Source: a virus
Lineage: Duplodnaviria; Heunggongvirae; Uroviricota; Caudoviricetes
Reading direction: 5' to 3' (one strand)
Virus record (IMG/VR): IMGVR_UViG_2675903654_000020
Span: 1-32,559 of that record
DNA length: 32,559 nucleotides
Positions 8,587 through 15,717 of the stretch are shown here, piece after piece. Each line of letters starts with the position of its first letter. Within the stretch, counting starts at the first letter, position 1. Below the pieces are notes generated by a model that had not been told where the DNA came from, searched no databases, and worked only from the letters and a program-made list of their open reading frames with translations. The position numbers were made by a program, and so were the translations under genes.

Positions 8587-8752
8587 AGTTATCCCACCAG
8601 ACAGCGAAACGATGAACGGGATTTTTGCAGAGATTGAACGTAAATATGCGCATCAGCCGATGACGCCAAAAGTTATCGATGAAATGCAACGCGAAGCGGC
8701 GCGCCTTGTACGGCGAGCGACAAACACGAAGGTTACGTTCGTTCGGGACTGA
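8567..8752 (+). CDS. hypothetical small protein (61 aa)
   Basis: ORF with ATG 8567; weak RBS; start uncertain. Confidence 0.3.
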   Translation: MARLNVEVIPPDSETMNGIFAEIERKYAHQPMTPKVIDEMQREAARLVRRATNTKVTFVRD

Positions 8753-8809
8753 CATTACAGAAGCTCCTTTGATAAGGGGCTTCGATAATGTCACTAAGAG
8801 GAAAAATTC

Positions 8810-9559
8810 ATGGCAAAACCGGACTGGGAGGCCATCGAATCGGCATACCGGGCCGGAGTCCTTAGCCTCCGTGATATAGGCGAGAAATACGGCGTAACAG
8901 AAGGGGCTATCAGGAAGAGGGCTAAAAAGCTTGGTTGGGTACGCAGTGGCGGTACGCAGGTTTGCAAAAATGGTACGCAAAAAAGAAAAGTGCGTACCAG
9001 CAGAAAGCCTGCCATTACTGGCCTTACACAAAAAGGTACGCAACCAAAAACAGAAGCTACACCGGATACGAAACCGATACGCGGAATGCGTACCGATCCC
9101 CCGACTAACCCATTCCAACCCGGTAACCAGCAGGCATTAAAACACGGTGGTTATGCCCGTCGCCTTCTGCTCAAAGATGAGGTGATAGAGGACGCTAAAG
9201 CGTTGACGCTCGAGGACGAATTATTTCGCCTTCGTGCTAACAACCTTGTCGCTGCAGAGAATATTGGTCGGTGGCTGGTGTCGCTGGAAGATGCTAATGG
9301 GGACCAGGAAAGGAAGATGCTGATGGAAAATATCAGCGCCGCCGAGAAAGCAATGATGCGCAATACAGTTCGTATTGAGTCCATCGTTGGCACGCTTGCG
9401 ACGGTAGGAAAAATATTTGCTGATACAGCCTACCGCAAGGCCGCCACTGATAAGGTGTCTCTGGAGGCTGATCGTCTTCGCCGTGATGCAGGTATTGATG
9501 ATGGCAATGGAGAGCGTGACCTCAATGACTTCTACTCTGACATCCAAACCGACGCTTAA
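8810..9559 (+). CDS. terminase small subunit
   Basis: N-terminal HTH-like region, immediately upstream of and overlapping the large terminase; AAGAGGA RBS. Confidence 0.7.
   Translation: MAKPDWEAIESAYRAGVLSLRDIGEKYGVTEGAIRKRAKKLGWVRSGGTQVCKNGTQKRKVRTSRKPAITGLTQKGTQPKTEATPDTKPIRGMRTDPPTNPFQPGNQQALKHGGYARRLLLKDEVIEDAKALTLEDELFRLRANNLVAAENIGRWLVSLEDANGDQERKMLMENISAAEKAMMRNTVRIESIVGTLATVGKIFADTAYRKAATDKVSLEADRLRRDAGIDDGNGERDLNDFYSDIQTDA
8938..9094. repeat. cluster of octamer repeats GGTACGCA (4 direct, 2 inverted) inside the small terminase gene; candidate pac-type recognition site
   Basis: GGTACGCA at 8938, 8951, 8972, 9035; TGCGTACC at 8991 and 9087. Confidence 0.4.
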
Positions 9560-10928
9560 TCCGGCTTTACGTAGTTTCTGGACTACGCGGGCACGTAACA
9601 AAGTGCTTTATGGTGGCCGGTCATCGTCAAAATCATGGGATGCCGCTGGCATTGCCATATTTCTGTCGAATAAATACACCCTGCGTTTTTGTTGTGCCCG
9701 TCAGATCCAGAACAAAATCGAAGAGTCGGTGTATACCCTGCTCAAAATTCAGATAGACAGGTTTGGCCTGCGGCACCGTTTCCGTATTCTGAACAACAAA
9801 ATCATTAACCGGGTTACTGGCTCGGAATTTGTTTTTTATGGATTATGGCGCAACATCGAAGAAATTAAGTCACTGGAGGGGATCGATGTGTTGTGGCTGG
9901 AAGAAGCCCACGCACTGACGGAATACCAGTGGAAAATTCTGGAGCCAACGATCCGTAAAGAGGGGTCGGAATGCTGGTTCATATTCAACCCCGGACTTGT
10001 TACTGATTTCGTCTGGCGCAACTTCGTTGTTGATCCGCCCGAAGGCACTCTCATCCGCAAAATTAACTATGACGAAAATCCGTTTCTGTCTGACACCATG
10101 CTTAAGGTTATCGACGCGGCGCGACGCCGTGATCCGGATGGTTTTAAACATGTGTATGAGGGCGTTCCGGAGTCTGATGATGATGCGGCAATCATCAAAC
10201 TGTCCTGGATAGAAGCCGCAGTGGATGCGCACAAAACGTTAAATTTCGAACCCAGTGGAAGAAAGCGTATTGGCTTTGACGTGGCTGACAGTGGTACAGA
10301 TAAGTGCGCTAACGTTTACCGTCACGGATCCGTTGTTTTCTGGGCCGACGAATGGAAGGCCAAAGAAGATGAATTACTGAAGAGCTGCCAGCGTACTTAT
10401 CAGGCGGCGCTGGAGCGTGAAGCAGATATTGTTTACGACTCTATCGGTGTTGGTGCGTCTGCCGGTGCTAAATTCTCTGAAATTAACGCTGACCGGAAGA
10501 GCGAGAATGCATACGCGAGACGAGTGAATTACCAGAGGTTTAACGCCGGTGCTGGTGTGCATGAGCCAGATGACGAATACAACGGCATCCCCAACAAAGA
10601 CTTTTTCGCAAATCTTAAGGCTCAGGCATGGTGGCTGGTGGCTGACCGTTTCAGAAATACGTTTAACGCCATTAACAACGGAGAACAGTATCCTGTGGAT
10701 GAGCTGATCAGCATAGATTCTAGTTGTCCGTTGCTTGAAAAGCTGAAACTGGAACTGACAACACCTCATCGCGATTTTGACCGTAACGGACGTGTGATGG
10801 TCGAAAGTAAAAAAGACCTCGCAAAACGCGAGATACCGTCACCAAACGTTGCTGACGCATTCATTATGGCCTTCGCGCCAATTGATACATCGCTGGATAT
10901 CTGGGAACAGCTGGGGAGACAGGCCTGA
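9501..10928 (+). CDS. terminase large subunit
   Basis: 476-503 aa ORF after terS with ATPase then nuclease-like organisation; start uncertain (in-frame ATGs at 9501, 9507, 9525; the track start at 9417 is upstream). Confidence 0.8.
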   Translation: MAMESVTSMTSTLTSKPTLNPALRSFWTTRARNKVLYGGRSSSKSWDAAGIAIFLSNKYTLRFCCARQIQNKIEESVYTLLKIQIDRFGLRHRFRILNNKIINRVTGSEFVFYGLWRNIEEIKSLEGIDVLWLEEAHALTEYQWKILEPTIRKEGSECWFIFNPGLVTDFVWRNFVVDPPEGTLIRKINYDENPFLSDTMLKVIDAARRRDPDGFKHVYEGVPESDDDAAIIKLSWIEAAVDAHKTLNFEPSGRKRIGFDVADSGTDKCANVYRHGSVVFWADEWKAKEDELLKSCQRTYQAALEREADIVYDSIGVGASAGAKFSEINADRKSENAYARRVNYQRFNAGAGVHEPDDEYNGIPNKDFFANLKAQAWWLVADRFRNTFNAINNGEQYPVDELISIDSSCPLLEKLKLELTTPHRDFDRNGRVMVESKKDLAKREIPSPNVADAFIMAFAPIDTSLDIWEQLGRQA

Positions 10929-12394
10929 TGGCACGAAACAAACAAGCCCTGCGGCGAACTGCGCAGGCCACAGCTGATGGTTATGAGAATTTTATTGCCC
11001 GCGTAGGGATGCAGACACCTAACCAGCACTCAGCATCCACCTACCGGGCTAATTTCACCAGTCGTAACCGCATGCTGGTGGAATGGTCCTATCGTTCGTC
11101 CTGGATCATCGGCGAAGCGGTCGATGCTATCCCAGATGATATGACCCGCAAAGGCATTCGCATCACTTCGGAAATTGATGCAAAAGATCGCGGCATTCTC
11201 GAATCACAACTGGATGAGTTGCAAATCTGGGATGCACTGAACGACGTGCTGAAATGGTCGCGCCTCTATGGCGGCGCGGTGGGTTTCATCATGATTGAGG
11301 GGCAGGCACCAATGACCCCTCTGCGACCCGAAACCATCGGTAAAGGCAAGTTTAAGGGCATTCTCCCGCTCGACCGCTGGATGATTGACCCGGTACTGAC
11401 CCGCCGCATTAAAGATATGGGGCCGGACCTGGGTAAACCTGAGTTTTATGATGTGGTGACCACAGCAACGGGAATTCCTGCCTGGCGCATTCATCACAGT
11501 CGCCTGATTCGCTTTGATGGCGTCACGCTGCCATTTCAGCAGAAGATGACCGAGAACGAATGGGGAATGTCGGTTGTAGAGCGTATCTGGGATCGTCTTA
11601 CCGCGTTCGACAGCGCTACTGTCGGTGCGGCGCAGCTGGTCTACAAGGCGCATTTGCGTACCTACAGCGTGGAGAAGCTACGCGAGCTTATCGCACTTGG
11701 TGGTCCTGCGTATGAAGCGTTGCTGAAGAATATTGACCTGATTCGACAGTTCCAGAGCAATGAAGGCATGACTCTCATGGACTCGCGGGATAAGTTTGAA
11801 ACCCATCAGTACAGCTTCAGTGGTCTGGATGACATCCTTTCACAGTTTGCAGAACAGATTAGTGGCGCTGTTGGTATCCCACTGGTGCGGTTGTTCGGAC
11901 AGTCCCCGAAGGGATTTTCTACCGGCGATGCAGACCTTGCCAACTATTACGACCGGGTAAGTTCGTTGCAGGAGAGGCGTTTACGTCTTCCGGTGCGGCG
12001 GATACTGGACATCATGCATCGTTCGGAACTTGGCAAGCCGCTCCCGGATGATTTTACATTTGAGTTTAACCCGCTCTGGCAAATGTCTGATGTCGATCGT
12101 TCAACGGTGGCATTAAATACCACCAACGCAATCAGTACAGCGCTGGGTGATGGTCTGATGACACTGAAAGCTGCTATGACCGATTTGCGCGAAAATTCTG
12201 ACGTAACCGGCATCGGGGCATCCATTACCGATGAGGACATAGAGAATGCCGAAGACGAAGCGCCGCCCGGCATCGGCGAACCTGATGACGAACCGCAGGA
12301 ACCGTCAGGCGGAAATCCGCTATCGAACCAGCCTACGCAGGATAGCGCGGGCGGTCGGGGACATCGTAAATGGTCGCTACGATGGTTCAAATGA
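10928..12394 (+). CDS. portal protein
   Basis: 488 aa ORF directly after terL (TGATG overlap), acidic C-terminus, followed by head morphogenesis gene. Confidence 0.7.
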   Translation: MARNKQALRRTAQATADGYENFIARVGMQTPNQHSASTYRANFTSRNRMLVEWSYRSSWIIGEAVDAIPDDMTRKGIRITSEIDAKDRGILESQLDELQIWDALNDVLKWSRLYGGAVGFIMIEGQAPMTPLRPETIGKGKFKGILPLDRWMIDPVLTRRIKDMGPDLGKPEFYDVVTTATGIPAWRIHHSRLIRFDGVTLPFQQKMTENEWGMSVVERIWDRLTAFDSATVGAAQLVYKAHLRTYSVEKLRELIALGGPAYEALLKNIDLIRQFQSNEGMTLMDSRDKFETHQYSFSGLDDILSQFAEQISGAVGIPLVRLFGQSPKGFSTGDADLANYYDRVSSLQERRLRLPVRRILDIMHRSELGKPLPDDFTFEFNPLWQMSDVDRSTVALNTTNAISTALGDGLMTLKAAMTDLRENSDVTGIGASITDEDIENAEDEAPPGIGEPDDEPQEPSGGNPLSNQPTQDSAGGRGHRKWSLRWFK

Positions 12395-14775: not shown

Positions 14776-15717
14776 ATGATTACTTTTGATCAGGCAACCG
14801 TTGACAACTCTGGTGCCTTTCTCATCGGGGAGCTGGAGCGACTCGACCAGACGCTGAACCTGCCACTGGTGGGGTACACCTGGACCCGCGATATTCAGTT
14901 GCGTGAAGATGTCTCTATCGCAGATGACATTTCCAGCTGGACGAATACCAGCTTCGCCGCTGCGGGTACTGGTGCAAATCCGAATGGCAAAAACTGGGTA
15001 GGCAAAGACTCAACCGCTATTGCTGGCGTGAACGTGGATATCGGCAAATCCGGTAACCCGCTGAACCTTTGGGGGATGGAACTTGGCTGGACGGTCATAG
15101 AATTGCAGGCTGCTCAGCAGATCGGACGCCCGATTGATACGCAGAAGTATGACGGGATGCAACTGAAATGGCAGATGGATAACGATGAACAGGTATATGT
15201 TGGCGATTCCGCATTAAACCTGAAAGGTCTTGTTACCCTGGACGGCGTGCCTGTCAACAACGCTGCCAAAACGTGGGCAACCTCAACACCGGACGAAATC
15301 CGCGCAAGCATTAACCAGGTGCTGTCTGATGCGTGGGCCGCTTCCGGTTACTCTGTGGTTCCGCGTGATTTGCTGATCCCGCCTGAGCAGTTTGCTCTGT
15401 TGTCCAGCATCATCGTTTCATCTGCGGGTAACCAGTCCCTGTTGACGTACCTTCAGACCAACACCATCAGCTATCACCAGAACGGTATTCCGCTGAATAT
15501 CCGCGCGGTTAAATGGCTGAAAGGCCGTGGTGTGGGGAATAAGGATCGCATGGTTGCGTACACCAACGATAAAAAATACGTCCGCTACCCGCTGGTTCCG
15601 CTTCAGAGCGTGCCGGTGCAGTATCGCGGTCTGTATCAGATCGTCACTTACTACGGCAAGCTGGGTGCAGTCGAGCCAGTGTACAAAGAAACCATTTCGT
15701 ACGTTGATGGCATTTAA
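14776..15717 (+). CDS. major capsid protein (putative)
   Basis: 313 aa ORF with strong AAGGA RBS in the head module; hairpin immediately downstream. Confidence 0.55.
   Translation: MITFDQATVDNSGAFLIGELERLDQTLNLPLVGYTWTRDIQLREDVSIADDISSWTNTSFAAAGTGANPNGKNWVGKDSTAIAGVNVDIGKSGNPLNLWGMELGWTVIELQAAQQIGRPIDTQKYDGMQLKWQMDNDEQVYVGDSALNLKGLVTLDGVPVNNAAKTWATSTPDEIRASINQVLSDAWAASGYSVVPRDLLIPPEQFALLSSIIVSSAGNQSLLTYLQTNTISYHQNGIPLNIRAVKWLKGRGVGNKDRMVAYTNDKKYVRYPLVPLQSVPVQYRGLYQIVTYYGKLGAVEPVYKETISYVDGI

Follow-up and report, generated by a model that had tools for sequence, protein, structure and literature searches.

How the small terminase subunit (TerS) of pac-type phages recognizes its own DNA is still regarded as unclear and controversial, in vitro binding being weak or nonspecific for P22, Sf6, SF6, and SPP1 (PMC9611059), and even well-studied phages, ES18 among them, still lack a known pac site (PMC11260489). 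In P22 and SPP1, the headful recognition signal lies in or overlaps terS (PMC9611059, PMC11260489), and the pac site of P1 comprises seven hexanucleotide repeats (PMC11260489). In the lambda-like cosB sites (lambda, 21, N15, Monarch), the recognition helix of gpNu1 is matched to the sequence of the R sites and sets specificity, R2 is inverted relative to R3 and R1, and the 5' end of terS can be swapped together with its sites as a specificity cassette (PMC4669245).

Here, we analyze a repeat array located in the terS gene of a 32,559-nucleotide viral record (IMGVR_UViG_2675903654_000020, positions 1 to 32,559; this entire stretch is called the window below). The window corresponds to an enterobacterial prophage and shows ∼97% identity to prophages of a dozen complete E. 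coli genomes. The array consists of copies of the octamer GGTACGCA, and sequence comparisons make it probable that these are the cognate DNA sites of the helix-turn-helix (HTH) domain of the TerS that this gene encodes, and that together they form the recognition part of the prophage's pac site.

An octamer array lies inside the small terminase gene

The terS gene (8810..9559, + strand) encodes a protein of 249 amino acids (aa) that matches PHROG 370 "terminase small subunit" over residues 1 to 248 (E 9e-95), in agreement with the identity given to it by an earlier, sequence-only reading of this DNA. Counting both strands, we found seven exact copies of GGTACGCA in the window, compared to 0.84 ± 0.87 in shuffled sequences, and seven copies were reached in 0 of 100 window shuffles. 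Six of the seven are located within 157 bp of terS (8938 to 9094). The sequence-only reading had listed four direct and two inverted octamers there as a candidate pac site; our recount reproduces all six coordinates exactly.

Site 1 (8938..8945, + strand) reads W-V-R-S (tGG GTA CGC Agt, codon phase 2 of the octamer), and sites 2 (8951..8958, + strand), 3 (8972..8979, + strand), and 5 (9035..9042, + strand) read G-T-Q. The inverted copies, which appear as TGCGTACC on the + strand, read V-R-T at site 4 (8991..8998, − strand) and M-R-T at site 6 (9087..9094, − strand). The GTQ repeats that had been noted in this region thus account for three of the four direct copies (aa 48 to 50, 55 to 57, and 76 to 78), but neither for the copy at 8938 nor for the inverted ones. 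Alignment with relatives revealed two decayed copies on the + strand, GGTTTGCA at 8959..8966, where Klebsiella-phage relatives have an intact GGTACGCA at the aligned position, and CTTACACA at 9023..9030, where several relatives have CGTACGCA. Overall, the 157 bp contain six exact and two decayed copies, with a cluster of four sites (8938 to 8998) and two distal sites (9035 and 9087); sites 3 and 4 form a 9-bp inverted repeat with 11 nucleotides (nt) between its arms. The core heptamer GTACGCA has eight exact copies in the window, six of them in the array. Outside the array, exact copies are single, with one octamer in the portal gene (11655-11662, − strand) and one heptamer in a head gene (15555-15561, − strand), a number equal to the chance expectation, and variants with one mismatch are not enriched (69 found versus 81 expected).

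The models of TerS order the protein as an N-terminal HTH, a linker, and a helical oligomerization region. The N-terminal domain (NTD) in the AlphaFold models is a three-helix HTH (aa 1 to 43, encoded by 8810..8938, + strand) with helices at residues 6 to 15, 20 to 27, and 31 to 41 (predicted local distance difference test [pLDDT], 82 to 91). The last of these is the recognition helix (8900-8932, + strand), in which E31, G32, and R35 are candidate specificity residues. A basic linker follows (aa 43 to 104, 8936..9121, + strand) that is modeled with low confidence and is probably disordered (pLDDT of ∼30 for aa 48 to 104), and then come long helices (107 to 226). The full-length model has a mean pLDDT of 63 and is reliable only in the NTD and the helical core. 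The array, which corresponds to aa 43 to 95, sits wholly within the linker-coding segment between the HTH and the long helices, and if the linker is as flexible as its pLDDT suggests, the protein could tolerate whatever peptide a DNA word imposes on it.

Directly downstream, terL (9525..10928, + strand; start approximate, overlapping the end of terS) encodes an Sf6/PBSX headful-type large terminase, which matches Pfam Terminase_3 (E 4.5e-38) and TIGR01547 and is a close homolog of the solved Sf6 gp2 (4idh, E 9e-79). Sf6 is a classic headful packager, and with a TerL of this type, packaging of the pac type is expected. The array is therefore located where a pac site would be expected, in the terS gene of a phage with a headful-type TerL. 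Headful packaging has been found experimentally for Erwinia phage 59, a phage that shares this NTD and array (PMC7317114).

Comparison with known systems

The nearest pac-type analogue is P1 pac. According to its annotation and sequence, seven TGATCA/G hexamers are spread over ∼160 bp of pacA (nt ∼190 to 370), and the P1 cut sites map to pacA nt 275 to 285, between hexamer clusters. As in the window (terS nt 129 to 285), several copies of a short element lie inside the small-subunit gene just after the code for an HTH-like N terminus. The motifs are nevertheless unlike, and TerL is of the Sf6 type and not PacB. Since GGTACGCA does not contain GATC, control by Dam methylation as in P1 is not expected, and no IHF site was identified at the window array. 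The similar layout led us to consider homology of TerS to P1 PacA (397 aa), which was not retained, as BLASTP was not significant and an NTD profile gave an E value of ∼1 among 831 decoys; weak hints come from a match of a Shiga toxin (Stx) phage relative (E 0.009) and from hhalign (95.6% on mixed profiles, driven by Stx and RothC sequences).

For a matched helix and site, the nearest analogue is the cosB R sites of lambda, 21, and N15, which likewise consist of several TerS sites, direct and inverted, next to or in the TerS gene, and which thereby provide a precedent for the mixed orientation of the sites in the window. However, their phages are of the cos type and have a GpA-type TerL, a separate cosN nicking site, and R sites mostly upstream of the gene, whereas the window array combines a headful terminase (Terminase_3/Sf6 type and not GpA, unlike that of lambda-type cosB) with sites of 7 to 8 bp, spaced by 12 to 15 bp, within linker code. 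The signals of P22, which has one asymmetric site of 22 bp within gene 3, and of SPP1, where pacL and pacR flank the cut and TerS binds weakly or nonspecifically in vitro, differ in that neither consists of short repeats in exact copies and both go with other TerS families. A similar gene architecture is found in lambda O, where the iterons of ori lie inside gene O, in flexible-linker code, and are the binding sites of the protein's own N-terminal DNA-binding domain; that system differs in serving replication initiation and in involving an unrelated protein family. By analogy, we file the window array under a known kind, the repeat-type packaging recognition site inside terS.

The repeats behave as DNA words

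We then looked into the array in related phages. Klebsiella temperate phages with ∼88% nucleotide identity keep it, with up to seven direct and two inverted copies, the copy number varying among these relatives through 12-bp in-frame indels. In HK639, SEN34, Klebsiella phage ST11-VIM1phi8.1, and Erwinia phage 59, the likeness to the window TerS is confined to the first ∼45 residues, and three to four GTACGCA heptamers follow right after the HTH code, mostly in the V-R-K, V-R-N, or V-R-S frame. The same heptamer array and the same N-terminal HTH are found on three TerS backbones of ∼250, 200, and 170 aa with differing C-terminal parts, and G-T-Q, V-R-K, or x-R-T is what the array encodes across these. 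Over its first 50 nt (8810 to 8859), the window terS is 94 to 96% identical to HK639 and SEN34, the rest of those genomes having no DNA match, which suggests that phages otherwise unrelated to each other have recently exchanged the 5' end of terS.

Within the window terS, GGTACGCA already appears in three coding contexts, and family-wide, the copies are found in codon phases 0 and 1 and inverted, where they encode GTQ/STQ/RTQ, VRK/VRN/VRS, and VRT/MRT. The choice of synonymous codons follows the DNA motif. In the GTACGCA class, the Thr of x-T-Q is ACG in 230 of 245 cases (94%), compared to 186 of 730 Thr codons (25%) elsewhere in terS, and Val-Arg in the linker is written GTA-CGC in 182 of 250 cases and GTG-CGT, which corresponds to the inverted site, in 53 of 250, compared to 3 of 56 for GTA-CGC elsewhere. 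The family-wide density of class-specific heptamers is 15.6/kb in terS nt 90 to 420, against 0.14/kb in the flanks (566 versus 41 matches). The extended site has the consensus G-GT-NNN-CA-(A/G), which makes the octamer the right unit for the GTACGCA class.

When relatives carry another motif, the changes are concerted across the copies, being silent in one (GTA to GTT for Val; CGT to CGA for Arg) and coding in another (G-T-Q to G-S-Q or G-N-Q). Only selection on the DNA word explains such a mixture of silent and coding changes. Given the several frames and orientations, the biased synonymous codons, and the conservation across backbones with different peptides, these comparisons of sequences show that the repeats are under DNA-level selection, and a DNA-level function, for which the sequence-only reading had argued, is thereby strengthened.

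Recognition helices covary with the repeats

We next compared the HTH and the repeats in an enlarged sample, obtained by adding 146 NTD-coding loci from IMG/VR and one genome per bacterial species; at each locus, we determined de novo which GT...C. heptamer was repeated most often after the HTH code. Among 112 nonredundant TerS proteins, 19 variants of the recognition helix map one-to-one onto eight heptamers. Helices of the form (S/T)EG(A/G)IRK(R/K), the class of the window TerS, go with GTACGCA, SDTA(I/V)RK(R/K/H) with GTTCGC(A/G), NHATI(L/I)K(R/K) with GTAACCA, TH(G/S)A(I/V)NKR with GTATCCA, SHTAINNR with GTTTCCA, SHVGI(T/Q)KR with GTTACCA, and THQAISKR with GTTGCCA. The EG·IRK class spans all three backbones, and the 170- and 200-aa backbones each host several classes. 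On the 170-aa backbone, the sites occupy fixed positions whatever the motif, at nt 175/178, 187/190, and 200/203 (direct) and 215/218 (inverted). In the alignment of orthologs, each of the four sites keeps G-T and C-A unchanged, and core bases 3 to 5 switch jointly. All three to four copies of an array switch class together.

Mutual information between the columns of the NTD and the site core is highest for E31, G32, and R35, which are positions 1, 2, and 5 of the recognition helix, and helix 1 of TerS is invariant across classes. Arg at residue 35 goes with G at core position 5, and Leu, Asn, Thr, Ser, or Gln goes with C. We are inclined to think, with the balance only slightly in favor, that the TerS family carries a readable natural code of packaging specificity, in which helix residues 1, 2, and 5 would specify bases 3 to 5 of G-GT-NNN-CA and the HTH and array would form a mobile cassette passed between backbones. 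The code would read E·G··R=ACG, D·T··R=TCG, H·A··L=AAC, H·G··N=ATC, H·T··N=TTC, H·V··T/Q=TAC, and H·Q··S=TGC. The sequences compared are related and the counts not independent; the number of specificity switches amounts to a minimum of ∼6 (four on the 170-aa and two on the 200-aa backbone). At least seven natural specificity classes can be seen in the family, compared to two or three in lambda-like cosB. We found no published account of a family-wide helix-to-site code, which is apparently undescribed so far and directly testable.

Phages with a different HTH have a different repeat at the equivalent place. In Enterobacter phage BHUENT3, it is GGTAACCA. The TerS of Klebsiella phage RothC is 47% identical to the window TerS but has a different HTH, and its terS contains, at the place equivalent to the array (598 to 642 of locus L007), two TGCGAATTCGCA palindromes and a half-site, which may represent another specificity class with a palindromic site. 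In Stx-converting phages with a 933W-type terS, the linker code holds four GATCAT repeats with a period of exactly 12 bp, which encode the peptide IDHEIDHKTDHEIDHD (VT2-Sakai, 1642 to 1683 of L008, identical in L009 and in many phages of this type). Each GATCAT holds a Dam site and resembles the P1 pac hexamer TGATCA/G, and the N terminus of the Stx-phage TerS is also the one that gives the weak match to P1 PacA. The resemblance suggests a P1-like, possibly methylation-sensitive pac in the Stx phages.

Reciprocal motif scans and an orphan array

As a reciprocal test, we scanned IMG/VR for triple arrays of four of the heptamers without any protein reference and then sought the NTD upstream. It was found upstream of at least 97 of at least 121 GTACGCA arrays, at least 46 of at least 121 GTAACCA arrays, at least 73 of at least 120 GTATCCA arrays, and at least 16 of at least 127 GTTCGCA arrays. 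Among the matches listed, 232 triple arrays had the NTD upstream, and all of the parsable helices (222/222) were of the class predicted from the motif, with none off-diagonal. Where the NTD was missing, the array came from a truncated member of the family, from tandem peptide repeats, from simple repeats of unrelated viruses, or from iteron-like arrays in GC-rich phages.

One of the arrays without an NTD is an orphan, intergenic array of three GTACGCA (10219 to 10252 of L269, IMGVR_UViG_2791355396_000002) that is identical to the 34-bp array of ST11-VIM1phi8.1. At 120 bp downstream, there are two copies of GGTTCGC, a motif that belongs to a different class (10371 to 10391). L269 is a 19-kb provirus with excisionase and tail-like genes and has no terS near the array, and a comparison of the region to phages, plasmids, and E. 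coli genomes matched nothing beyond the 34 bp. With the orphan array, a satellite or defective element may mimic pac.

The scans also returned repeats of other kinds. Three GC-rich viral contigs (L166, 6792 to 6850; L193, 3520 to 3570; L271, 7893 to 7945) contain three to four direct GGTACGCAGCC that recur every 11 bp and then one copy in inverted orientation, located within long open reading frames (ORFs) or at their start and without a TerS NTD; these repeats look like iterons for some other DNA-binding protein. In L201 (7640 to 7720), a 12-bp tandem GGTACGCAAAT(G) encodes (M/S)(G/E)TQ units in a 379-aa non-TerS ORF and may be another case of binding sites within linker code.

Function of the array and alternative explanations

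The repeat and the DNA-reading helix always change together in related phages, for which reason the octamers are very probably TerS sites. Since TerS serves to recognize packaging signals, the array most likely represents the part of pac that is recognized. The candidate pac site of the sequence-only reading thus gains support from the covariation of helix and repeat and from the Sf6 headful-type TerL. We propose that TerS oligomerizes via its long C-terminal helices, with the HTH domains tethered by linkers of ∼55 residues, and that each HTH would read one G-GTACGCA site through helix positions 1, 2, and 5. Four close sites and two distal ones in both orientations would make binding multivalent and hence specific, and the multiplicity and the 12- to 15-bp spacing fit such binding by an oligomer with tethered HTH domains. 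DNA-bound TerS would recruit the Sf6-type TerL, which would make a first cut nearby and start headful packaging from there. As the sites adjoin the HTH code, the specificity of the protein and its target would be inherited together.

Several points weigh against this proposal. We infer from sequence the binding by TerS, its oligomeric state, the position of cleavage, the direction of packaging, and the role in initiation. Sf6-type terminases can initiate over a broad region, and the cut may lie away from the array. Homology of TerS to PacA, the protein of a proven repeat-type pac, is not established, and sites 3 and 4 can pair as a single-strand hairpin (z = −3.6). Finally, the covariation was drawn from phylogenetically related samples in which the HTH code adjoins the array, and coinheritance could explain part of the association. 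It cannot explain, however, why the copies within an array are identical and switch jointly, and this concerted change argues for function.

Binding of the array by TerS could also serve another purpose, namely that of an operator through which TerS autoregulates transcription or translation of terS-terL, the packaging signal being elsewhere. The covariation shows the coupling of helix and site and is silent on what binding does, and initiation by Sf6-type terminases is known to be imprecise, both of which leave room for this explanation. We nevertheless consider it unlikely, as a promoter scan found no promoter-like element overlapping the array, TerS proteins are defined by recognition of the packaging signal, and in each worked-out case cited here (P22, SPP1, and P1), it is pac that TerS targets in or near its gene; moreover, the noncoding orphan array of L269 has no terS to regulate. 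Less likely still is that the array works as a hairpin or cruciform formed by mRNA or by single-stranded DNA, or that some protein besides TerS binds it. Sites 3 and 4 do give a 9-bp stem in a 186-nt region that folds with z = −3.57, and concerted changes in both arms would mimic compensatory mutations, but most arrays of the 200-aa backbone have direct copies only, extra direct copies also switch jointly, no Rfam match was found in the region, and the coupling with the helix residues of TerS would be left unexplained. Scans of the array region for promoters, terminators, and Rfam families were all negative.

The repeats might instead act mainly as recombination junctions, offering microhomology where N- and C-terminal TerS modules are swapped between phages. 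They do lie precisely where the shared NTD gives way to the divergent C-terminal backbones, and the near identity of the first 50 nt of terS to HK639 and SEN34, next to unrelated remainders, speaks for such swaps. This explanation fails, however, to account for the homogeneity of multiple copies, the class-specific cores, and the link to helix residues, so that we give it very little credence and regard recombination as more likely a side effect. It is least probable, to the point of being nearly dismissed, that the repeats are a by-product of slippage or duplication in a low-complexity G-T-Q linker, with no role as DNA. Three copies encode G-T-Q, the segment is predicted to be disordered, and copy number varies among relatives by 12-bp in-frame indels, all of which speak for it. 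Against it stand the copies in differing frames and orientations that encode unrelated peptides, the synonymous codons nearly fixed within sites, the reading of the identical DNA motif as V-R-K in other backbones, and the joint switching of synonymous and nonsynonymous changes between classes. We thus retain the packaging recognition site as the preferred explanation of the array.

Our literature search turned up no earlier account of a repeat-type pac, whether for this TerS family or for Klebsiella, HK639, SEN34, or Stx phages, and a search on the octamer itself returned only primers and unrelated sequences. The authors of the SEN34 report did not identify packaging sequences (PMC5261728), and the Mulock genome announcement does not mention packaging. 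The Mecenats66 paper was set aside as a precedent since its terminase is of the unrelated GpA type. The start and end positions of related phage genome records were likewise rejected as termini, as they coincide with gene starts and are arbitrary.

The TerS family and the terS neighborhood

The TerS family is widespread, with 2,231 database matches at E ≤ 1e-5; terS was found in 207 of 5,426 complete E. coli genomes, and Klebsiella prophages commonly carry it. E. coli FDAARGOS_1289 has a terS with 100% identity to that of the window, and cultured relatives include Klebsiella phages GZ7, Mulock, and RCIP0034/0098 as well as Erwinia phage 59. The HTH NTD of the PHROG 370 TerS is also common to PHROGs 1206, 51, 1889, 509, and 2606. 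No Pfam or NCBIfam model matches TerS, whose product is labeled "hypothetical protein" in RefSeq, as in most phage records of the family, and annotation-based tools consequently miss the terS and the pac of these prophages. A Foldseek search with the TerS NTD alone gave HTH DNA-binding domains as the nearest solved structures, none of them significant and none a TerS, and the full-length model gave generic long-helix matches only. Searching the TerS sequence against solved structures returned nothing relevant.

Downstream of terS are the genes for the Terminase_3 large subunit, the portal, and a Mu-F-like head protein, and upstream are those for endolysin and spanins. Just 5' of the terS ribosome-binding site, we noticed a strong hairpin (8750-8793) with 20-nt arms that are 85% complementary and a 4-nt loop (−25.9 kcal/mol, z = −5.4). 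It is not followed by a T-run and has no Rfam match, and its 3' arm is invariant in the Klebsiella-phage relatives. It may be a site of RNA processing or stability or a protein-binding palindrome.

Implications

Sequence comparison alone yielded an 8-bp site, its multiplicity and geometry, the three likeliest reading residues, and at least seven natural specificity variants, with which the question of TerS recognition becomes one of simple swap experiments. If the proposed code is true, pac specificity in a large group of enterobacterial phages would be predictable from sequence and could be reprogrammed, and orphan arrays such as that of L269 would mark elements that parasitize the TerS of a helper. 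A known pac site and its orientation would predict the regions subject to lateral transduction by these prophages and the satellites that they can package.
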